Part shown: positions 2,178 to 13,482 of the stretch, piece after piece | Layout: each line of letters opens with the position of its first letter | Numbering within the stretch: the stretch's first letter is position 1 | Position numbers and translations under genes: made by a program | NCBI RefSeq assembly: GCF_000026545.1 | Contig: NC_011601.1 | DNA: 64,000 nucleotides | Source of the DNA: Escherichia coli O127:H6 str. E2348/69 | Lineage (GTDB): Bacteria > Pseudomonadota > Gammaproteobacteria > Enterobacterales > Enterobacteriaceae | Reading direction: 5' to 3' (one strand) | Notes under the pieces: model-generated | Database searches by the model: none | Told to the model about the DNA's origin: nothing | The model's input: the letters and a program-made list of their open reading frames with translations, nothing else

Positions 2178-2882
2178 TTAATCCATCCGATGTTCCCCCT
2201 TTTCCATGGCGTCGCGATCAAAAAATCGCTGAATTTTTCCCTCGGACATCAATGCCGCTCGATCAGACATATGCGCGATGACATCGGCATCGTGACTGAC
2301 CAGCAGATATGTCATTTGGTGTTCCAGCTTAAGTTGATTCAACAAATTAAGGATTTCCGCTTGTACCGACATATCCAACGCCGAGGTGGGTTCATCCAGC
2401 AGAAGAAGTTGTGGTCGTAACAACAGGGCGCGAGCAATAACCACACGTTGCCGTTGACCACCGGAAAGCTGGTGTGGGTAGCGACGAGCGGCGTCGAAAG
2501 GCAAGCCAACCTGTTCCAGTGCAGTCTGGACGCGTTTTTCTATTTCTCTTTCGCCACGAATTTTGAGTGGTTCAGCCAGCGTTCGCCACAGAGTATGATT
2601 GGGATGCAACGAGGCATAGGGATCCTGAAACACCATTTGCACATTGCGGCGGAGATCGCCCTGAAAACGCATTCCTGGTTTGATGGTGTGCCCAAACAGT
2701 GACACCTGACCGTGCCAGTCGCGCTGTAATCCAGCAATTACGCGCAAAATCGTGGATTTTCCGCAGCCTGATTCGCCAATTAAACTAAATGTCTCTCCGG
2801 CATTAACCGAAAAACTGGCGGCAGAAACTGCGGTTTTCTCAGCAAAAGTCACCTGTAAGTGATTAATTTCAACAATCGTCAT
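2178..2882 (-). CDS. ABC transporter ATP-binding protein (short NikE/DppF-like), last gene of accessory ABC operon
   Basis: Walker A GESGCGKST, signature LSGGQRQR, Walker B LLLLDEPTSALD; ATG start overlaps the upstream ATPase gene by 14 nt. Confidence 0.9.
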   Translation of the reverse strand: MTIVEINHLQVTFAEKTAVSAASFSVNAGETFSLIGESGCGKSTILRVIAGLQRDWHGQVSLFGHTIKPGMRFQGDLRRNVQMVFQDPYASLHPNHTLWRTLAEPLKIRGEREIEKRVQTALEQVGLPFDAARRYPHQLSGGQRQRVVIARALLLRPQLLLLDEPTSALDMSVQAEILNLLNQLKLEHQMTYLLVSHDADVIAHMSDRAALMSEGKIQRFFDRDAMEKGEHRMD

Positions 2883-3705
2883 GGTATTTCTCCGGCGTCA
2901 TTGCCGTCCTGTCCAGCGTCGGCAGCATCTGCCCGTAAGTTTGTGCATTTGGGCGGCAAGTCCACAGTGTGCGCGTGTAAGGATGCGTTGCTGTAGGTAG
3001 CGCAGCAGCGTGCATTTCATCCACCTTATTTCCCTGATACATCACCAGCACCCGATGGCAAAATTGGGCAACTAATGGCAGGTCGTGACTGATCAGCAAC
3101 ATTGCCATCTGACGTTGTTCACACTGGGTAACCAGCAGTTCCAGAATCTGATTACGCAGGCGCACATCCAGTGCTGATGTTGGCTCATCGGCAATCAATA
3201 CCCGGGGATCGTTGATGAGCGCAATTGCAATCATCACTCGCTGCCCCATGCCGCCAGAAAGTTCACGAGGATAGCTTTGCAGTACTCGCGTATTGAGGCC
3301 GACAGCCTGAATTGCGGTGTTTATTTTCTCTTCTTTCTCGCGGCGGTTCAGACGTTGATGGAGCGTAAGCGCCTCTTCCAGTTGCGCTTTTACTGTCTTT
3401 ACTGGATTAAGCGCGTAACGCGGATCTTGCAATACCATCGCGATATCGTTACCGCGCAACTGTTGCCATCCACGCGCGTTAAGGGTGAGTGCATCACGCC
3501 CCAGAATGTTAAGTGTGTCCGCGGTTACTACACCCGGTTTACGCACCAGCCCCATCAGGGCGCGGGCGGTCATGGACTTACCTGAACCCGACTCACCGAC
3601 CAGCGCCAGACGTTCATTGCCTAATGTAAAACTGACATTGTTGACGACCCGGGACTCCGGATAATCGACGCAGAGATTGTTGATACTAAGACGTGAGTCA
3701 GTCAT
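2869..3705 (-). CDS. ABC transporter ATP-binding protein (short NikD/DppD-like)
   Basis: Walker A GESGSGKS, signature LSGGMGQR, Walker B LIADEPTSALD; start taken at the internal ATG (MTDSRLSINNL), since the track's 20-codon upstream extension overlaps the permease gene. Confidence 0.85.
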   Translation of the reverse strand: MTDSRLSINNLCVDYPESRVVNNVSFTLGNERLALVGESGSGKSMTARALMGLVRKPGVVTADTLNILGRDALTLNARGWQQLRGNDIAMVLQDPRYALNPVKTVKAQLEEALTLHQRLNRREKEEKINTAIQAVGLNTRVLQSYPRELSGGMGQRVMIAIALINDPRVLIADEPTSALDVRLRNQILELLVTQCEQRQMAMLLISHDLPLVAQFCHRVLVMYQGNKVDEMHAAALPTATHPYTRTLWTCRPNAQTYGQMLPTLDRTAMTPEKYHDDC

Positions 3706-4531
3706 GTTGAGGCTCCAGAACATCGCGCAAGCCATCACCCAGCAGATTAAAGGCCAGACTGGCAATTAAGATAATTGCGCCGGGAGCGGCGGCAATCCAC
3801 CATTGATCAAAAATGACCTGCATACCGTCGGCGATCATGGCTCCCCATTCCGCCATTGGCGGGCGAGCACCAAGCCCAAGAAAACCCAGGCCAGCAGCCG
3901 CCAGAATGATACCCGCTAAATCCAGCGCCAGACGGACAATGGCAGATGGCAGGCACAATGGCAAAATATGACCAGCCAGCAGACGCCTGCCGCGGATGCC
4001 CATCATTTCTGCGGCGGCAAGATAATCACTGTGTCGCAGACGTTGGATCTCACTCCGTGCCTGACGCGCATAAGCAGGCCAGGTGGTTAATGCCAGCGCC
4101 AGTGCGCCGTTAACCAGCCCCGGCCCCAGCATGGCAACAAAAGCAAAAGCCAGAATTAAACGCGGCATTGACATTACTACGTCAGTAAAACGCATCAGCA
4201 CGCGTTCCAGCCAGCCGCCGTAGTACCCGGCTAAAATGCCAATCAGCAGACCGACCGGGAGTGTAATGATTGTCACCAATGCCACCAGCCCCAGTGCCGG
4301 GCGGCTGCCGTAGATTAAACGTGAAAGTAGGTCTCGCCCGTAACTGTCAGTGCCGAGCCAGTGCTGACGACTCGGTGCTTGTAACCGCGCCGCCGCATCC
4401 TGCCAGTTAGGATCGTGAGGTGCCAGCCACGGCGCGAAGAGCGCAATTAGCATCAATAACAGGATAATTATCAACCCGCAAAACGCGGCGGGTGAATGGC
4501 GTAAACGGCGTAAAAAGAGAAACATCGGCAT
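3698..4531 (-). CDS. ABC transporter permease (DppC/NikC-like)
   Basis: 277 aa hydrophobic multi-helix protein in operon position; ATG start. Confidence 0.88.
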   Translation of the reverse strand: MPMFLFLRRLRHSPAAFCGLIIILLLMLIALFAPWLAPHDPNWQDAAARLQAPSRQHWLGTDSYGRDLLSRLIYGSRPALGLVALVTIITLPVGLLIGILAGYYGGWLERVLMRFTDVVMSMPRLILAFAFVAMLGPGLVNGALALALTTWPAYARQARSEIQRLRHSDYLAAAEMMGIRGRRLLAGHILPLCLPSAIVRLALDLAGIILAAAGLGFLGLGARPPMAEWGAMIADGMQVIFDQWWIAAAPGAIILIASLAFNLLGDGLRDVLEPQHD

Positions 4532-5580
4532 CAGCGTAACCTCGGATCGGTCAGCCGGACCAGCAGGTCGGTTAAGTTATTTATCAACACAAAGCAGACG
4601 CCAATCAGCAGCGTTCCTCCCATGATTGCTGTGGTATCACCCGCGAAGAGCGCTGTAGTGAGGTAGCGCCCAATACCTGGCCATGAAAAGACGGTTTCTG
4701 TCAGTACCGCGCCTTCCAGCATTGATGTATAGGCGAGGGCGATAACGGTGAGTAAGGTGCCGCGAATGTTGGGTAAAACATGACGTAGCAAAATTGTCAT
4801 CTCGCTGGCCCCTTTGGCGCGCGCCAGCAGAATATATTCTTTATTCATTTCGCCAAGACAGACGGAACGAGTCAGGCGCGTAATACTGGCGAGCGAGAAG
4901 TACGCCAGTAATAAAACCGGAAGTATCAAATGGTTGATTGCATTGGTAAATGCCTCGCGATCGCCAGAAAGCCACGTATCAATCAGCGCAAATCCGCTGC
5001 GGGGTTCTATGGTGAATTGATAAATATCATCCAGCCTGCCCGGCCCGGCACTCCATTGCAGTCTGGCGTAGAACAGCGCCAGCATCAGCAGACCAAGCCA
5101 AAAAACAGGGACGGAATTTCCCAGTAGAGTTAATGTTCGCACGGTGAAATCCAGCGGAGAACCGACATAACGGGCGCAAAGTACACCCGCAATGACGCCG
5201 ACAACAGCACCGACAATAAGCGCCAACGTTGCCAGTTCAATGGTCGCCGGGAATGCTGATAGCAAGTCCTGGAGTACCGGTTGCCCGGTGGAGCTGGCGA
5301 TGCCCAGATCGCCGTGTGCCAGATTCATCAGGTAATGCCAGAACTGGACGGCTAACGGTTGATCCAATCCTAACTGGTGGCGTACCTGATCATAGGTGGA
5401 CTGGCTGGCGTGATCGCCAACGATTTGTAGTACGCGATCGACCGGTGAGAGAGCCGAAAGCGCAAAGGTAATCAGCAGCAGGCCGAGTAGCGTCAGAGCA
5501 ACGGTAAACAGCCCTTGCAACAGCGCGAGCAGAGGGCGTTTGCCTCGCCATCTCGCGCGAGTGGAAAAAACGACAGACAT
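4531..5580 (-). CDS. ABC transporter permease (DppB/NikB-like)
   Basis: Hydrophobic permease; start taken at ATG MSVVFSTRAR, as the track extends 31 codons upstream; stop overlaps the next gene's start. Confidence 0.85.
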   Translation of the reverse strand: MSVVFSTRARWRGKRPLLALLQGLFTVALTLLGLLLITFALSALSPVDRVLQIVGDHASQSTYDQVRHQLGLDQPLAVQFWHYLMNLAHGDLGIASSTGQPVLQDLLSAFPATIELATLALIVGAVVGVIAGVLCARYVGSPLDFTVRTLTLLGNSVPVFWLGLLMLALFYARLQWSAGPGRLDDIYQFTIEPRSGFALIDTWLSGDREAFTNAINHLILPVLLLAYFSLASITRLTRSVCLGEMNKEYILLARAKGASEMTILLRHVLPNIRGTLLTVIALAYTSMLEGAVLTETVFSWPGIGRYLTTALFAGDTTAIMGGTLLIGVCFVLINNLTDLLVRLTDPRLR

Positions 5581-5607
5581 GATCTTTCCATACAGTGATA
5601 AATCAGC

Positions 5608-5632
5608 GGCTGGCCTGCAATACAGGCCAGCC
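5608..5632 (-). other. Intercistronic stem-loop between binding-protein gene and first permease gene
   Basis: 10-bp inverted repeat ggctggcctg / caggccagcc with 5-nt loop, read directly. Confidence 0.5.
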
Positions 5633-5679
5633 CTGGTACCGCGCCCGGTAATATGGCTGGACGCGAGTTGCATACAGGG

Positions 5680-7248
5680 TTATTTGGTTACCTGATCAAA
5701 CCAGACCATATCGGCATTCAACCCTTGTTGATACCCCTGCACATTATCACGCATGACAATTTGCGTTTTGCCTTGATCAATAAAGACATACGGGGAACTA
5801 CGTTGTAGTTCTTGTTGCATTTTCTTATACAAATCAAGACGTTTAGCGCTATCAGGTTCAGCGATGGCCGCCAGCGTTTCTTTGTTCAGTTCCGGGATTT
5901 TCCAGCCGTTTAACCCGGCAACGGTGCTGGATTTGCCATCGTTATAGGCGAAAGAGCTGGCGTTGGAATGTGCGTCAAAATAATCAGGCAACCACATACG
6001 AATGGCCCCCTGATGCTGGTGGGCGCGAACGCGAGAGTAGACCTGACTCCCTGCGGCTGGCAGCAAATCAACTTTTACACCGCCCTGAGCAAAGCTGGCC
6101 TGAATTGACTGCGCGATGGTAATAAATGGCGGTTTATTTTCGACATCAAGCGTGAAGTGCGGGTCTTTGATTCCGGCTTTAGCGAGGATCTCTTTTGCTT
6201 TGGCTGGATTAAAGGTAAACGGTGTTTCTTCCAGTGCTCCAGGAAAGCCCACGGGCAGGAAACTTTGATGGGTAAAATATTGTCCTTTTAAGAGATTTTT
6301 GGTGATGCCGTCGTAATCGACCAACCAGCGAGCGGCCTCCCAGAACGCAGGATTACTCATCAGCGGGTTATCCTTGTTACCGGTATTGAAGGCCAGGTAG
6401 TTCTGTTCGGCGGAGGCAATGCTCATCACTTTTACGCCAGGTTTACCCTGTAATGCATCGATTTGATCGGCTCCCAGATCACGAGCCATATCAGCATCAC
6501 CTTGTTGGATCAGCAGGCGACGCGTTGCCGGATCGGGAACATTTTTGATGATGACGTTTTTCAGTTTCGGGGCGCCGGTTGGTGAGCTGGCGTTGGCTTC
6601 CATCACGATGGCCTGATGCGGTTGGTAAGTACGCATTTTAAACGCGCCGCTGCCAGCGGAATGCATCTTCAGCCATTCATTACCAAAGTCGTTATTTTTG
6701 GCGTTTGGCGCAACCAGCTTCTCGTCAACAATTGAGGCGATTGGTGTGGAGAGAATATTCAGTGCCAGCGCCGGGCTGACGTCGGCACTCCATTGCACCT
6801 GGACGGTATGGTCATCGATTTTCTTCAACTGGCTGGCGATATTTTCCGGCTGCCATCCCAGCACATTGAGAATAAACGCACCGGATTTATTCAGTGTGAC
6901 AGCCCGGACATAAGAGTAAATCACATCTTCCGGGCGTACCGGATTACCAGAGGCAAATTTCGCATCGCTTTTCAGTTTTATGGTTAGCGTTTTGGCTGCT
7001 GGGTCAGCCTGCCAACTTTCCGCCAGAATCGGAGTGATTTTCGTCGGATCATTACGGTCCGGTTGTACTACGCGTTGATACAGACTTGGTACAGTCTGAA
7101 TACTTGAGAGTTCATTAGCTTCTGCCGGGTCCAGACTCACAATATCATCCAGTCCCTGGGCTACAACCAACGTATTAGGCGGTGTAGCGGCAACGGTTGT
7201 GGCGGAAATTGTGCTTAAAACCAGTAAAGGTAATAGTTTTTTAATCAT
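5680..7248 (-). CDS. Periplasmic substrate-binding protein, family 5 (OppA/DppA/NikA-like)
   Basis: 522 aa with N-terminal signal peptide MIKKLLPLLVLSTISATTVAA; first gene of a five-gene ABC operon; ATG start. Confidence 0.9.
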   Translation of the reverse strand: MIKKLLPLLVLSTISATTVAATPPNTLVVAQGLDDIVSLDPAEANELSSIQTVPSLYQRVVQPDRNDPTKITPILAESWQADPAAKTLTIKLKSDAKFASGNPVRPEDVIYSYVRAVTLNKSGAFILNVLGWQPENIASQLKKIDDHTVQVQWSADVSPALALNILSTPIASIVDEKLVAPNAKNNDFGNEWLKMHSAGSGAFKMRTYQPHQAIVMEANASSPTGAPKLKNVIIKNVPDPATRRLLIQQGDADMARDLGADQIDALQGKPGVKVMSIASAEQNYLAFNTGNKDNPLMSNPAFWEAARWLVDYDGITKNLLKGQYFTHQSFLPVGFPGALEETPFTFNPAKAKEILAKAGIKDPHFTLDVENKPPFITIAQSIQASFAQGGVKVDLLPAAGSQVYSRVRAHQHQGAIRMWLPDYFDAHSNASSFAYNDGKSSTVAGLNGWKIPELNKETLAAIAEPDSAKRLDLYKKMQQELQRSSPYVFIDQGKTQIVMRDNVQGYQQGLNADMVWFDQVTK

Positions 7249-7422
7249 ATGCTTCCCAATCCCTAAAATTACTTTGAGGTTATTAATATGCTATCAGACG
7301 GGGGTTCGCTGCATTAATCGCGCCAGAATATCCCGTTAATAGAACGAGTTAAACGGTCGATGATTTCTCACCTTACCGAAATTTTGTTTATCAAATGTAA
7401 AGTATTATTACGTTAGGCCGCG

Positions 7423-7450
7423 ATGAGAATTGAGTAAAGATAATTCTCAT
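7423..7450. promoter_or_regulatory. Perfect 9-bp inverted repeat (atgagaatt N10 aattctcat) upstream of the ABC operon, candidate operator
   Basis: Palindrome read directly, about 175 bp upstream of the binding-protein start; no known regulator assigned. Confidence 0.3.
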
Positions 7451-7533: not shown

Positions 7534-7570
7534 ATAAAAAAATCCGGAAACAGAGAGTCGTTTCCGGATT
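7534..7570 (-). terminator. Rho-independent terminator of fdhF
   Basis: Stem aatccggaaac / gtttccggatt followed by a T-run on the minus strand, ~50 nt after the fdhF stop. Confidence 0.8.
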
Positions 7571-7622: not shown

Positions 7623-9770
7623 TTACGCCAGTGCCGCTTCGCGCAGGCGAGTTTTCAACTTGTTGTACTCGTCAATCACGTACTGCTCGGCGGCGCGCTG
7701 ATCGGCGATCGGCTCGACGCGCACGGCGCAGTATTTGTATTCCGGCGTTTTCGTAATCGGGCTTAAGTTTTCGGTAACCAGCTCGTTACAGGCACCAATC
7801 CACCACTGGTAGGTCATGTAAATCGCCCCTTTGTTCGGACGATCGCTGACCTGCGCACGGGTGATAATTTTGCCTTTACGCGAGTGCACCCAAACCAATG
7901 CCTCATCTTCAATACCCAGACGTTTGGCGTCTTCGGTATTGATTTGTGCGTAGCCAGGTTCATCAGCCAGCGCCGCCAGTGCCGCACAGTTACCGGTCAT
8001 CGAACGGCAAGAGTAGTGACCAACTTCACGCACCGTTGACAGTACCATCGGGTACTCGTCGGTGAGTTTGTCGATTGGCGCGACCCAGTCGCAGGTGAAG
8101 AACTGCGCCAGACCGTTCGGGGTATCAAACTTCTCTTTAAACAGATAAGAAGTCCCCTGATCGGCATCTGAAGTATCCCGGCAAGGCCACTGAATGAAGC
8201 CCAGTTCGCCCATTTTTTCGTAAGTCGCACCGTAGAAATCCGGGCACAGATGACGCAACTCATCCCAGATCTCCTGGGTGTTGTTGTAGTGCATCGGATA
8301 ACCCATACGGGTGGCGATTTCACTGATAATCTGCCAGTCCGTTTTCAGATCCCATTTCGGTTCAACCGCTTTGAAGAAACGCTGGAAGCCACGGTCAGCC
8401 GCAGTAAACACGCCTTCATGCTCGCCCCACGACGTTGACGGTAAAATAACATCCGCCGCCGACGCGGTTTTGGTCATAAAGATGTCCTGAACGATGACCA
8501 GTTCCAGATCTTCAAAGGCTTTACGTACTGCCGACAGCTCCGCGTCAGTTTGCAGCGGATCTTCGCCCATAATGTACGCGGCACGCACTTCGCCATGCGC
8601 TGCGCGGTGCGGCAGCTCGCTGATGCGATAGCCGGTATGAGCAGGCAGGCTTTCCACGCCCCAGGCTTTGGCGAATTTCTCGCGGTTAGCCGGATCTTTC
8701 ACGTACTGGTATCCCGGATACGTATCCGGCAGCGCGCCCATATCGCAGGCACCCTGCACGTTGTTCTGACCACGAACCGGGTTTACACCCGCATGCGGCT
8801 TACCGAGGTTACCAGTCAGCATCGCGAGGCTGGTCAGAGAACGCACGGTTTCCACGCCCTGGTAGAACTGGGTTACACCCATGCCCCACAGGATGGCGGC
8901 GCTTTTCGCCTGGGCATACATCCGCGCCGCCTGACGAATCTCACTGGCGCTGACGCCGGTGATATCTTCAACCGACTCCGGCGTGTAGCCTTCAACGATT
9001 TTACGATACTCTTCAAAGCCTTCTGTACGGGAAGCGACGAAAGCTTTGTCGTACAGGTTTTCTTCAATAATGACATGGCCCATCGCATTCAACAGCGCGA
9101 TGTTCGAGCCGTTTTTCAGTGCAATGTGCATGTCAGCAATGCGCGCGGTTTCAATTTTGCGCGGATCGCAGACGATAATTTTCGCCCCGTTACGTTTAGC
9201 GTTAATTACGTGATTCGCCACGATTGGGTGGGAATCCGCCGGGTTGTACCCGAAAACGAACACTAAATCGGTATTATCAATTTCGTTAATAGCATTGCTC
9301 ATTGCGCCATTACCGACCGATTGGTGCAGACCTGCAACCGATGGGCCGTGTCAGACACGAGCGCAGCAGTCAACGTTATTGGTACCAATAACGGCGCGCG
9401 CAAATTTTTGCATTACATAGTTGGTTTCGTTACCCGTACCACGCGAGGAGCCGGTCGTCTGGATGGCATCCGGACCGTACTTCTCTTTGATGGCGCTCAG
9501 GCGCTCGGCAACGTAATTCAGTGCCTCATCCCAGGAAACAGGTTCGAGTTTGCCGCCACGCTGGCGACGGATCATGGGGGTTTTCAGGCGCGGGGTCAGG
9601 ATCTGGGTATCGTTAATGAAATCCCAGCCATAATAACCCTTCAGACACAGGGTACCCTGGTTGGTTTTCCCCTGCGCTGCCTCCGCCCGGACGATTTTGC
9701 CGTTATCGACGACCAGGTTGATTTTGCAACCTGATGCGCAATAGGGGCAAACCGTGACGACTTTTTTCAT
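7623..9770 (-). CDS. fdhF: Formate dehydrogenase H, selenocysteine-containing molybdoenzyme
   Basis: Track ORFs 9351..9770 and 7623..9302 are in the same frame across a single TGA; 716 codons total; N-terminal Cys cluster CPYCASGCK. Confidence 0.95.
9305..9353 (-). other. In-frame UGA selenocysteine codon (9351..9353) with downstream SECIS region
   Basis: TGA flanked by ...DCCARV and HGPSVAGLHQSVGNG...; bacterial SECIS elements lie immediately 3' of the UGA. Confidence 0.85.
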
Positions 9771-9810
9771 CGGTCTCGCTCCAGTTAATCAAATCACGCA
9801 TACGCGCTCT

Positions 9811-9827
9811 CGACTACAGTATGCATC
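9811..9827 (-). promoter_or_regulatory. Sigma-54 (-24/-12) promoter of fdhF
   Basis: Minus-strand TGGCAT-N5-ATGCA matches the TGGCAC-N5-TTGCA spacing, about 40-55 nt upstream of the fdhF start. Confidence 0.75.
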
Positions 9828-9899
9828 TTTTATGCCACATTTTATTTGGGGTCATTCCCTGATATTACGGGCACTATTTATTCAAAACTCTGACGAAAA

Positions 9900-9955
9900 A
9901 CAGGCTGTCGTCAGTTTTGACGTGACGAAACGAAATACCGCGTGACAGCCATCAC
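9900..9955 (-). promoter_or_regulatory. Putative enhancer (FhlA upstream activating sequence) for fdhF
   Basis: Inverted-repeat-rich segment (tgtcgtca / tgacgtgacg / cgtgacagcc) about 80-130 bp upstream of the sigma-54 element; assignment by position only. Confidence 0.4.
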
Positions 9956-9967
9956 GCGGCAGACATT

Positions 9968-11434
9968 TTATTTTTTCTCGACGACGGGAGCCGCCTGATA
10001 CCCGCCGCCCAGCGATTTCATCAACTGAATGCTTTGGATCACCCGGCGGCTGTCCAGCATCAGTAATGACATCTCTTCGGCAAGTACTGGCAACCGGGCT
10101 TCAGTGGCCTGTAAGCGGCTGGTTAAGCCGCGTTGATAGGCGGCCTCGGCAGCGCGCTGGGTGAAGCGCGTTGCTTCCACGCGTTCAGCCTGCATCTCTC
10201 GCTCGTCGTTGAGCGTTTGCAGACGCGTGCCGTTGACGGCAACGTCGCGCACCGCATTCAGCACTGACTGGTTGTAACGTTCAATCATCATGTTGCTGGC
10301 GGCGCGAATGCCTTCGAGATTGGCATTCAACCGTCCACCGTCAAACAGCGGCAATTTCAGACCCGGGATAAAGTTGAACTGGCGACTGGTTTTTTTGAAT
10401 AAGGTATCCAGGTGGATAGAATCCAGGCCGAAAAACGCTTTGATATCAAAGCTCGGGTAGAACAACGCCCGCGCGGAATCCACCTGATCTAATGACGCCT
10501 GAACATACCAGCGCATCGCTTGCAGATCCGGGCGTCTGGCGAGCAACTCATAAGAGAGTGTCGCCGGAATACCGGTCTGGACTCGTGGTAATGCCACCGG
10601 TTTGATCTCCGGCATATCGCTGGCTCCCGCGCCAATCAATGCGCGCAGAGATTCCCGCGTTTCAGTGATTTGCCCTTTGACGGCAGCAATTTGTTTATCG
10701 ACCGCCAGAATCTGTGCCCGCGCGCCGTGGAAAGGCACTTGCGCTTCCAGACCGTGCGCCACTTTACTCTGGTGCGCTTTCACCGCGTAATCAATCACAT
10801 CGCGAGTTTGTTCTAACAGATCGAGCATCTGATAGCTGGCCTGCATACTGTAATAAAGCTGCGCTACGCCCGTGGTCAGCGATAGCTCTACTGCTGCGGT
10901 TTCTGCCAGCGCGGCATTATGCGCGCCAATGGCGGCAGCAACCGCTGAGCGATGCACACCCCACAAATCGAGATCCAGTCCGGCAAACAAACCGACTGTG
11001 GCTTCCGTATAGTACGGCCCGTCCATCCCCAGTGCGGGCGCATCCATCGCATAAGGGCTTAAAAAGCCGTTCGCCGAGACACGTTGGCGGTTGAGCATCC
11101 CTAACGCTGCGACCTGTAATTGTGAACCGGCATCTAACAAATCGGCCTGCGACTGCGCTTTTTCTTCCCGCAGTTTCGCTTCGGCGAGGGTGTGTGAACC
11201 ACTTAGCGTCTGTTGGACCAGTGCATCCAACTGCGGGTCATTGAGTTGTTTCCACCACTGCGCCTGCGGCCAACCGGAGCTGGCAAGATGAATATCATCG
11301 GCCAGTTTGATTTGTTCCGGTTTGAGCTGTTGATGAGGCGCAGAATCCTTACGTACCAGGGCACAGCCGGAAATCAGCGTCGTGCTGCCGAGAATGCTGC
11401 ACAACAGCAGGCGTGAAAGTTGACGATTGATCAT
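9968..11434 (-). CDS. mdtP: Outer-membrane efflux channel (TolC/OprM family) of putative efflux pump
   Basis: 488 aa with lipoprotein-type signal (LISGCA); downstream of mdtO. Confidence 0.88.
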   Translation of the reverse strand: MINRQLSRLLLCSILGSTTLISGCALVRKDSAPHQQLKPEQIKLADDIHLASSGWPQAQWWKQLNDPQLDALVQQTLSGSHTLAEAKLREEKAQSQADLLDAGSQLQVAALGMLNRQRVSANGFLSPYAMDAPALGMDGPYYTEATVGLFAGLDLDLWGVHRSAVAAAIGAHNAALAETAAVELSLTTGVAQLYYSMQASYQMLDLLEQTRDVIDYAVKAHQSKVAHGLEAQVPFHGARAQILAVDKQIAAVKGQITETRESLRALIGAGASDMPEIKPVALPRVQTGIPATLSYELLARRPDLQAMRWYVQASLDQVDSARALFYPSFDIKAFFGLDSIHLDTLFKKTSRQFNFIPGLKLPLFDGGRLNANLEGIRAASNMMIERYNQSVLNAVRDVAVNGTRLQTLNDEREMQAERVEATRFTQRAAEAAYQRGLTSRLQATEARLPVLAEEMSLLMLDSRRVIQSIQLMKSLGGGYQAAPVVEKK

Positions 11435-13482
11435 TGCGTGGCTCCTTGTACCTGTTCCGTGGCGGGCGTTAATGCCGGGGCTGTCCAGTCTGGCAAGCGG
11501 GCGAAAAGCTGGCAGACGTGTTGCTCCTGTTTTAATAAGGTCGGCAGGATGGCCTGCGAGGCGGGTGTTTCTTCAAGCGTTATTTGAGGAGAACGGCTGA
11601 GTGCAGTTGCCAGACCGGCGGCGTATTTCTCCAGTGCGTCGGCAAACTGACCTGCTCTGTCCGGCTGTAGTGCGTTATCCAGAGCCTGCGCCGAGTTCCA
11701 GGTTGCATCCCAAGCGTGAAGAATATCGCGGCCCTGACGAATAACCGTTTGCGAACGTTCAATCAGTAAAGCGCGTTCTTCGCTGTCCAGTTGACGCTCC
11801 AGCGCCACGCGTTGGCACATCTCTTCACAGGCATTAAACGCCGCATGCAGACCTATGCGAATTTGCAGATAAGTGCGCAGAGCCGTGACTTCCTGCTGGC
11901 GTGGGATCCGCATTACTTTACTCAACATACCCAGCGCGCCAGCCAGTTTTTGCGGCAGCGTGCGCGCTTCACTTTCAGGCCAGACAAAGGTGTAAATCAC
12001 CGCGGACACCACGGTACCAATGATGATACCCAGGGCGCGATCGCGAATTTCCACCAGGTCGTACACCGGGCCAAAAACGTTTTCGAGCGTGGCGAGCGCG
12101 AAGGTGACCACCATCTGTGTGCCGATATAAGAAGAGCGTTCAGAGCTGGTGGCAATCCATGCGCCCAACAGGAAAATCGGTGCCAGCACAAACAGCAATT
12201 CGACAATATTGTCCAGCCAGGGCATGACCAGCAGCGTGAATAACAGCGCCAGAATTGCACCGCAGAAGGCACCGCCAAAACGCAGCGCCATTTTCTGATA
12301 CGACGAACCAACATTCGGGTTAGCGACGATCACGCAGGTCAGCATACAGGTGTGAATGCCTTCCCAGTCCACGCCGCTGTAGAAGGTGTAACAGATCAAA
12401 CAGGCGAGCAGCGTTTTTACCGCGTAGCGCATATAGTCTGGATTGGTAAAAGCGTCGGCGACCATTGATGGCGGTTTGGCGGCGGGCGTTGGCGGCGTAT
12501 TCGGGTCCATCTGACCCAGTTGCAATAACGTCTGGCAGATATTCTCCAGGTTACATTCCCGTGCCGCCATCGCTTCACTTTCACTGATCCGCCAGTCGCT
12601 TTGCCAGCACTGACCTTCGGTAATGGAATGCTGCAGCTTGTTGATTTCTGAAGCTAATTTTTGTCGGAATTCAATAATTGCCTGAGAATCAGCAAAAGAG
12701 GTGGGATCGTAGCGATTCAGCGTCGAGTAAATGTAGGTTACCGTTGTCACGCAGCTTTGCCACCATGCGCTCTGGGTTCGCCAGTTGGCATCGTCCGCGA
12801 GGCAAAAGACATTGAGTTTTTGCAGCGCCAGCGCCTCTCTTTCAATCCGCGTTTCGGGTAGCGGTGCGAGGCTGTCCGTCAGGTGGCTAATGGCATCATC
12901 AAGCCGATCATTAAGCGCCTGATGCATCTGCGTAATGGCACGACTGGGAAACCACAGCACGCCGATTAACGTCATCAGCAAGGTTGGATAGAGGCCAACA
13001 ACGATACACCAGAGCGTTAAGCGCACGACCACTTCCGGATAGTCGAGCATGGCGGGGAAGGTTTGCCCGTAAATAGCGACAATGGCGACGGCGAAAAAGA
13101 CCAGCCCCAACCGATGGGTGCGCATCAAAAACATACCGCCCATCAGGATCGGTCCGGCGATGATCAATCGGATCAACGGTTCGCCGTATGACCATTTGTA
13201 GATCAAAAACAGGCTGCCGATCTCCAGCATCGTGGCGACCACAAACAAGATCGCCACAAATTTGGTGTAAAACGCGTTGGACTGAATACCGTAAAACAGC
13301 ACTGCCAGCGATAACGCCACAAAAGGGATCTCAAAAGTCATCGAGATCAGAATCACCAGCAGGCAGCCTACCCAGAGTTGCATAGTCTGCGGCACGCGGC
13401 CTGGTCGCCGCTCGCTTAACTCTTCATGAAAGAACGCCAGCAGCCTGACCACCGGTAATGGCAGGGAGTTGAGCGCGCTCAT
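11431..13482 (-). CDS. mdtO: Inner-membrane efflux component (AaeB/fusaric-acid-resistance family)
   Basis: 683 aa polytopic membrane protein; 4-nt overlap with mdtP. Confidence 0.88.
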   Translation of the reverse strand: MSALNSLPLPVVRLLAFFHEELSERRPGRVPQTMQLWVGCLLVILISMTFEIPFVALSLAVLFYGIQSNAFYTKFVAILFVVATMLEIGSLFLIYKWSYGEPLIRLIIAGPILMGGMFLMRTHRLGLVFFAVAIVAIYGQTFPAMLDYPEVVVRLTLWCIVVGLYPTLLMTLIGVLWFPSRAITQMHQALNDRLDDAISHLTDSLAPLPETRIEREALALQKLNVFCLADDANWRTQSAWWQSCVTTVTYIYSTLNRYDPTSFADSQAIIEFRQKLASEINKLQHSITEGQCWQSDWRISESEAMAARECNLENICQTLLQLGQMDPNTPPTPAAKPPSMVADAFTNPDYMRYAVKTLLACLICYTFYSGVDWEGIHTCMLTCVIVANPNVGSSYQKMALRFGGAFCGAILALLFTLLVMPWLDNIVELLFVLAPIFLLGAWIATSSERSSYIGTQMVVTFALATLENVFGPVYDLVEIRDRALGIIIGTVVSAVIYTFVWPESEARTLPQKLAGALGMLSKVMRIPRQQEVTALRTYLQIRIGLHAAFNACEEMCQRVALERQLDSEERALLIERSQTVIRQGRDILHAWDATWNSAQALDNALQPDRAGQFADALEKYAAGLATALSRSPQITLEETPASQAILPTLLKQEQHVCQLFARLPDWTAPALTPATEQVQGATQ

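Follow-up and report, generated by a model that had tools for sequence, protein, structure and literature searches.

As the textbook entry point of the formate regulon, the fdhF promoter sets the timing of formate dehydrogenase H synthesis for formate hydrogenlyase, and it is in use as a part of formate and anaerobiosis biosensors. In the DNA analysed here (a stretch of 64,000 nucleotides, hereafter the window), fdhF follows mdtP in the same orientation after a short spacer. The question that this locus raises is which bases of the spacer make up the promoter and the enhancer of fdhF, how firmly the enhancer can be assigned to the activator FhlA, and whether transcription arriving from mdtP could disturb them, as a sequence-only reading of the interval 9811-9955 had supposed. 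We conclude that 9811-9955 corresponds to the natural regulatory region of E. coli fdhF, comprising a sigma-54 promoter and an FhlA-type enhancer, and that this region is already known; a promoter and an upstream activating sequence (UAS) of the E. coli K-12 gene were reportedly described by Birkmann, Sawers and Boeck in 1987 and by Birkmann and Boeck in 1989.

The fdhF-mdtP Locus

Both genes lie on the minus strand and run right to left in the window, and the spacer between them, 9771-9967, is to be read on the minus strand.

7623..9770, minus strand: coding sequence of fdhF (formate dehydrogenase H), which has 715 codons and encodes selenocysteine by an in-frame UGA (RefSeq annotation)
9968..11434, minus strand: mdtP coding sequence, last gene of mdtNOP, upstream of fdhF and co-oriented with it (ORF list and RefSeq annotation)

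In the ORF list fdhF appears as two frames, 7623..9302 and 9351..9770, which are joined across the UGA, and a selenocysteine insertion element (SECIS_2, RF01988) was detected inside the gene at 9304-9358 with 87 bits. The stop codon of mdtP is the TAA at 9970-9968. A 501-bp query around the upstream region of fdhF matched 5,419 of 5,426 complete E. coli genomes, where the genes are annotated as fdhF and mdtP; this annotation, together with the SECIS element, confirms the identities that had been given to the two genes. When the segment 9760-9975 was compared with K-12 MG1655 a single base was found to differ, at 9846 (A instead of C), and therefore experiments made in K-12 apply directly to the spacer.

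A Sigma-54 Promoter Precedes fdhF

The promoter was expected to be a near-consensus -24/-12 element ahead of fdhF, and such an element lies in the right orientation 67 bp before the fdhF ATG (9770).

9837..9822, minus strand: sigma-54 -24/-12 element TGGCATAAAAGATGCA (GG-N10-GC geometry, RpoN matrix, identity to a ChIP-seq motif, conservation)
9811, minus strand: predicted transcription start (+1), from the rule of Bonocora et al. 2015, leaving a 41-nt 5' UTR before the ATG at 9770
9782..9779, minus strand: fdhF Shine-Dalgarno sequence GGAG

Relative to the predicted start, the GG is at 9836/9835 (-25/-24) and the GC at 9824/9823 (-13/-12), and the extended promoter sequence gTGGCATAAAAGATGCAt occupies 9838..9821 on the minus strand. 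A search with the plain consensus TGGCACNNNNNTTGCW, allowing 2 mismatches, returned 38 matches as compared to 43 expected from shuffles; in the absence of enrichment, a consensus match by itself is no evidence for a promoter. The plain search was replaced by an RpoN weight matrix made from 186 promoters (Table 2 of PMC7658346), with which TGGCATAAAAGATGCA scored 13.6 bits and ranked second among the about 128,000 positions on both strands of the 64-kb window. Moreover, the 17-mer GTGGCATAAAAGATGCA agrees in every base with OS41, the sigma-54 ChIP-seq motif found at K-12 fdhF by Bonocora et al. 2015 (PMC4591121), where it is assigned to fdhF, marked 'C' for experimentally confirmed in EcoCyc, and listed with a FAT/distance of 41. 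The rule given in the same paper, a start 19 bp downstream of the motif centre, leads to position 9811, which coincides with the lower bound of the interval of the sequence-only reading. Published genomic SELEX also found the RpoN holoenzyme bound in the fdhF-mdtP spacer, and the Salmonella fdhF promoter, TGGCATAAAACATGCATA, was bound by sigma-54 in ChIP-chip and showed a 29-fold sigma-54-dependent expression. On these grounds the proposal of a near-consensus element in front of fdhF is borne out. The 41-nt leader showed no structure beyond that of shuffles, and a consensus scan of 9600-10200, which may miss weak promoters, detected no sigma-70-like promoter.

To follow the promoter in other genomes, loci were picked with a degenerate pattern of the fdhF N-terminal coding sequence, taking one genome per species, which yielded 120 loci from more than 30 enterobacterial genera; since the pattern was drawn from coding sequence, the upstream region had no influence on which loci were picked. 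The best RpoN-matrix site in the 300 bp before the ATG was TGGCAY-N5-MTGCAT in 113 of 117 genomes, at 51-142 bp from the fdhF start codon. Three loci with the same fdhF N-terminal sequence, two from Pasteurellaceae (L050 and L077) and one from Entomohabitans (L093), had no sigma-54-like element within 300 bp upstream, and these homologues presumably use another promoter or sit inside an operon.

Other Sigma-54-Like Elements in the Window

The best RpoN-matrix site of the window was not the fdhF element: TGGCAGACGTGTTGCT, with 14.9 bits, lies at 11510-11525 on the plus strand, inside mdtO and antisense to it. In their sigma-54 ChIP-seq tables, Bonocora et al. 2015 (PMC4591121) do not list this gene, and for this reason the site is probably a chance match or unbound.

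Another element was observed on the other side of fdhF, where a five-gene ABC transporter (a binding protein, two permeases and two ATPases) occupies about 2178-7248 on the minus strand between fdhF and yjcO, arranged as in EPEC E2348/69. Only about 1,043 of the 5,426 complete E. coli genomes contain this island with at least 80% coverage. Its binding protein belongs to family 5 (SBP_bac_5) and is weakly similar to NikA, DppA and GsiB, far below the family cut-offs; no orthologues of it were found in the sampled loci. The sigma-54-like element TGGCGCGATTAATGCA (7310-7325, minus strand; 13.1 bits, rank 4 in the window) stands 62 bp before the ATG (7248) of the binding-protein gene, and a perfect inverted repeat, ATGAGAATT-N10-AATTCTCAT, lies at 7423-7450, about 100-125 bp upstream of it. 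The arrangement looks like a putative promoter and enhancer for the adjacent transporter operon, and no activator gene was evident within the island. As the island is absent from K-12, TGGCGCGATTAATGCA is outside the reach of the published K-12 ChIP-seq. Finally, a perfect 11-bp inverted repeat, AATCCGGAAAC/GTTTCCGGATT, followed by a run of T, was noticed at 7541-7570 (minus strand), about 50 nt past the fdhF stop codon, and is a likely intrinsic terminator of fdhF.

The Upstream Repeat Cluster Has a Conserved Core at Fixed Distance from the Promoter

Upstream of the promoter, five CGWCA/TGWCG pentamers fall within 50 bp (9884-9933), a density reached nowhere else in the 64-kb window, where the runner-up has 3; in 60 Markov-1 simulations of 64 kb the maximum was 3-4 pentamers and never 5. 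The elements of this region, with positions relative to the predicted start, are the following.

TGACG at 9891, TGTCG at 9906, CGTCA at 9909, TGACG at 9918 and TGACG at 9923, plus strand: the five pentamers
9908..9928, minus strand: enhancer (UAS) core TCGTCACGTCAAAACTGACGA, -117..-97 (conservation, pentamer cluster, dyad)
9890..9898, minus strand: proximal enhancer element TTTCGTCAG, -87..-79 (direct repeat D3, conserved columns)
9942..9946, minus strand: distal GTCAC element, -135..-131, candidate extra enhancer half-site (conserved columns, GTCAY in other genera)
9846..9870, minus strand: two spacer blocks of moderate conservation between enhancer and promoter, CCGTAA (9870..9865) and AATgaCCCCA (9856..9847)

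The cluster had been described as one of tgtcg/cgaca-type repeats lying 80-130 bp further upstream than the -24/-12 element. Its existence is confirmed, and its type was given approximately, four of the five pentamers being TGACG/CGTCA and one TGTCG. The distance holds when it is counted from the predicted start 9811, from which the pentamers are 77-119 bp away and the array reaches 135 bp if the distal GTCAC is included; it does not hold when counted from the -24/-12 element itself, the cluster being 52-94 bp upstream of the -24 GG.

Within the core the dyad CGTCA-N4-TGACG is centred at -104.5, and on the fdhF strand the array around this centre reads TTTCGTCAC-GTCA-AAAC-TGAC-GACAG at 9930..9905. 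The proximal element TTTCGTCAG is a direct copy of TTTCGTCA, which is found at 9930..9923, 32 bp apart; on the plus strand the repeat finder reported the same pair as TGACGAAA, at 9891 and 9923. A further inverted repeat, I2 (TCAAAACT at 9882-9889 and AGTTTTGA at 9913-9920), was considered as a functional pair and rejected, as its arms did not co-vary across genera: aaac in the left arm is replaced by atat or tttt, and GTTTTG in the right arm is kept. I2 is probably incidental.

An alignment of 36 genera anchored on the promoter showed flanks that were essentially unalignable and three blocks with at least 90% column identity, namely TCG-CACGTCA....TGACGA, TTTCGTCA and the promoter itself. Among 115 distinct fdhF upstream regions, which represent more than 30 genera, 101 matched the 21-bp core TCGWCACGTCA-N4-TGACGA perfectly, at 17/17 specified bases. 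From the first base of the core to the T of TGGCA the distance was 91-92 bp in 100 of 114 genomes, and in 9 of the 114 the core was 82-83 bp from the promoter, which is one helical turn less. TTCGTCA was present in 88 of 115 genomes, at 60-61 bp from the -24 element, and 90 of 114 had GTCAY at 16-21 nt upstream of the core, mostly without a hairpin at that place. An enhancer whose activator works by looping is predicted to keep a fixed phase and to be highly conserved amid divergent surroundings, as is observed here. Between enhancer and promoter, the columns of CCGTAA and AAT-CCCAC were at least 75% conserved, and the IHF consensus WATCAANNNNTTR was not enriched in this stretch versus a control segment. 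The only base of the spacer that differs from MG1655, 9846, falls in the second of these blocks, AAT-CCCAC.

Enhancer and promoter were equally conserved in about 100 species that have another gene upstream instead of mdtP, which argues that their function is independent of mdtP.

Assignment of the Enhancer to FhlA

According to the literature, fdhF belongs to the formate-FhlA regulon, FhlA being the sigma-54 activator of fdhF that is activated by formate, and FhlA binds upstream of fdhF and of hyc. In Proteus, the activity of the fdhF promoter falls in fhlA and in rpoN mutants. The occupancy by sigma-54, the dependence on FhlA and formate, and the binding of FhlA upstream of the gene are taken from published work, while the individual bases that FhlA touches can be named here only with reserve.

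The deletion analysis of Birkmann and Boeck in 1989, and the footprints of Schlensog et al. in 1994 and of Leonhartsberger et al. in 2000, are reported to place the fdhF UAS around -100.

The available sequence models of FhlA were applied to the spacer. The 16-mer consensus CATTTCGTACGAAATG of Leonhartsberger et al. 2000, in the form in which it is quoted in PMC4987338, had its best match in the spacer with 7/16 mismatches, only a half-site-like TTTCGT being present. This lowers the trust in CATTTCGTACGAAATG as a tool for finding sites and leaves the published dependence of fdhF on FhlA untouched. A 14-bp weight matrix made from 13 sites (PMC7658346) gave its best score of the spacer, 8.2 bits, to the dyad CGTCAAAACTGACG, and higher scores to more than 25 sites in the rest of the window. 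The matrix scan that had been suggested for both proteins ranked the sigma-54 element second in the window and did not single out the presumed FhlA sites. A 27-bp matrix built from the fdhF orthologues, in turn, gave only negative scores on the E. coli hyc-hyp, hydN and hyfA regions.

Shorter elements are shared among these regions. For the dyad GWCA-N4-TGWC the background amounts to 6 per 64 kb, which corresponds to a chance of about 1.4% per 150 bp; the dyad was found at the following places.

fdhF: GTCAAAACTGAC
hydN: GACACTAGTGAC (L003, 1222), 63-74 bp upstream of the hydN -24 element
hyfA: GACACGGGTGTC (L004, 1037), 97-108 bp upstream of the hyfA -24 element
hycA-hycB spacer: GTCATTTTTGAC (L002, 371)

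The exact dyad did not occur in the hyc-hyp intergenic region, and the heptamer TCGWCAC is common to the fdhF, hyc-hyp, hydN, hyfA and hycA-hycB regions. Since the 16-mer, the 14-bp matrix and the 27-bp matrix are all non-identifying, the bases at fdhF cannot be assigned to FhlA from sequence models alone. The assignment is established by the literature, it is consistent with the shared short elements, and it is not provable from existing sequence models. The view that the repeats are the expected FhlA enhancer is upheld by the deep footprint at a fixed distance and by the published work on FhlA, even if the published models do not identify it.

A Terminator-Like Hairpin between mdtP and the Enhancer

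The interval 9811-9955 was also said to overlap the 3' flank of mdtP. This is correct in that it abuts this flank, and its upper end, 9955, cuts through a hairpin.

9936..9961, minus strand: intrinsic-terminator-like hairpin of mdtP (terminator scan, minimum free energy, conservation)

The hairpin starts 7 nt after the mdtP stop codon and has an 11-bp stem with 6 G-C pairs and a 4-nt loop; its tail, UUUCGUUUCG, is an imperfect tract with 5 U in 8 nt. Its minimum free energy is -19.6 kcal/mol, as compared to -10.1 +/- 2.5 for shuffles (z = -3.8). In only 16 of the sampled species does fdhF have mdtP as its co-oriented neighbour on the upstream side, and in 12 of these a stable hairpin lies upstream of the enhancer core. 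Compensatory double changes were found in 3 of 10 stem pairs, for example CGCGTGA/TCACGCG to CGCATGA/TCATGCG. Stability, co-occurrence with mdtP and compensatory changes are together the signature of a maintained intrinsic terminator, and the hairpin is most likely a terminator that would stop mdtNOP transcripts ahead of the fdhF control region.

In Escherichia, Kluyvera and some others, the GTCAC at 9946..9942 is part of the 3' arm of the stem, and most genera have GTCAC without the hairpin. It seems that the DNA element came first and that the terminator formed around it.

Proposed Mechanism and Alternative Explanations

We are highly confident that fdhF is transcribed from a sigma-54 promoter which formate-responsive FhlA activates from a composite enhancer. 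In the mechanism that we propose, the sigma-54 RNA polymerase would sit on the -24/-12 element (9837..9822) as a closed complex, unable to start alone. FhlA, once activated by intracellular formate, would bind the composite enhancer of CGTCA/TGACG-type half-sites, made up of the core TCGTCACGTCA-AAAC-TGACGA (-117..-97), the proximal TTTCGTCAG (-87..-79) and, probably, the distal GTCAC (-135..-131). From there FhlA would reach the polymerase by looping the A/T-rich spacer of about 60 bp, and its ATP hydrolysis would open the promoter, so that transcription could begin near 9811, 41 nt ahead of the fdhF ATG. The hairpin 9961..9936 would most likely end mdtNOP transcripts ahead of this region.

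It could be argued that the -24/-12 match is fortuitous, the repeats being merely 3' UTR or terminator of mdtP and fdhF using another promoter, as the consensus search with two mismatches gave a count not above chance and a site inside mdtO scores higher in the RpoN matrix with no reported binding. Such a reading is already contradicted by published binding data, the motif being identical to one bound in ChIP-seq and the spacer being bound in SELEX; furthermore, the promoter is at the right place in 113 of the 117 genomes, loci without mdtP have conserved the repeats as well, and the scan of 9600-10200 detected no sigma-70-like promoter. We consider it extremely unlikely. With the sigma-54 promoter retained, the repeats might still serve, or be shared with, a different sigma-54 activator rather than being specific to FhlA. 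The obvious example is HyfR, a paralogue of FhlA that is encoded in the hyf operon and that also controls the hyfA region. The FhlA models do not single out the fdhF repeats, the sequence does not discriminate between the two paralogues, and the dyad GACACGGGTGTC lies upstream of hyfA in a region reported as FhlA-controlled. On the other hand, the literature names FhlA as the activator of fdhF, the activity of the fdhF promoter is lost in the Proteus fhlA mutant, and the enhancer is conserved in many genera, presumably irrespective of their hyf content, and we judge an activator other than FhlA, or one sharing the repeats with it, to be very unlikely.

Interference by mdtP read-through is compatible with activation by FhlA from the composite enhancer. 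Transcripts of mdtNOP that passed the hairpin could interfere with the occupancy of FhlA or of the closed complex, or could give rise to sigma-54-independent fdhF transcripts. The co-orientation of mdtP, which ends only 198 bp before fdhF, speaks for it, as does the physical overlap of the hairpin and its tail with the distal enhancer elements, and the imperfect U-tract (UUUCGUUU) makes some read-through conceivable. Against it stand the stability of a hairpin placed 7 nt past the mdtP stop codon (-19.6 kcal/mol, z = -3.8), its compensatory changes and its presence in 12 of the 16 species with mdtP next to fdhF, and the equal conservation of enhancer and promoter in the about 100 species with a different neighbour; in addition, a literature search returned no paper linking mdtP to fdhF expression. 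The suggestion of read-through interference was speculative and is weakened by the conserved hairpin directly after mdtP, and a material effect on fdhF appears unlikely. A low probability may be given to an enhancer that is larger and more rigid than published descriptions of the FhlA consensus imply, in the form of an array of G(T/A)CA of about 57 bp (-135..-79) around GWCA-N4-TGWC, at a fixed distance from the promoter in more than 30 genera, with the distal GTCAC incorporated, in Escherichia and some relatives, in the 3' arm of the mdtP terminator. If this were true, the same bases would be both an RNA terminator stem and a DNA enhancer element, and cross-talk between mdtNOP transcription and FhlA occupancy would be possible.

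For a promoter that is so well known the gain is modest. It consists of a precise definition of the enhancer core and of its fixed spacing across genera, of the finding that neither the consensus nor the matrix published for FhlA detects the fdhF core well, and of the overlap of a distal conserved element with the mdtP terminator.

Comparison with Known Systems

The closest known counterpart is the promoter and upstream region of fdhF in K-12, which is at the same locus and has the identical 17-mer motif and the same predicted 41-nt leader. Nothing functional differs between the two; the window differs from K-12 in its E2348/69-like background, with the extra ABC-transporter island downstream of fdhF.

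The other regions of the FhlA regulon, hycA/hypA, hydN-hypF, hyfA and hycA-hycB, resemble fdhF in having a sigma-54 -24/-12 element and G(A/T)CA-type half-sites 60-110 bp upstream. Unlike fdhF, the FhlA-dependent hyc-hyp, hydN and hyfA regions are without the extended core of 21-27 bp, and the hyc-hyp intergenic region, which has no exact dyad, carries direct repeats of TTTCGAC/TCGACA. IHF assists at hyc/hyp; no IHF consensus was seen in the fdhF spacer.

More generally, enhancer-binding proteins of sigma-54 systems, such as NtrC at glnAp2, activate transcription by looping in an ATP-dependent manner. Systems of the glnAp2 type share with fdhF the closed complex on GG-N10-GC, dyad-symmetric sites for the activator about 100 bp upstream, and a strict spacing or phasing; they differ in that FhlA senses formate through its N-terminal domain, not through phosphorylation, and in the sequence of the half-sites.
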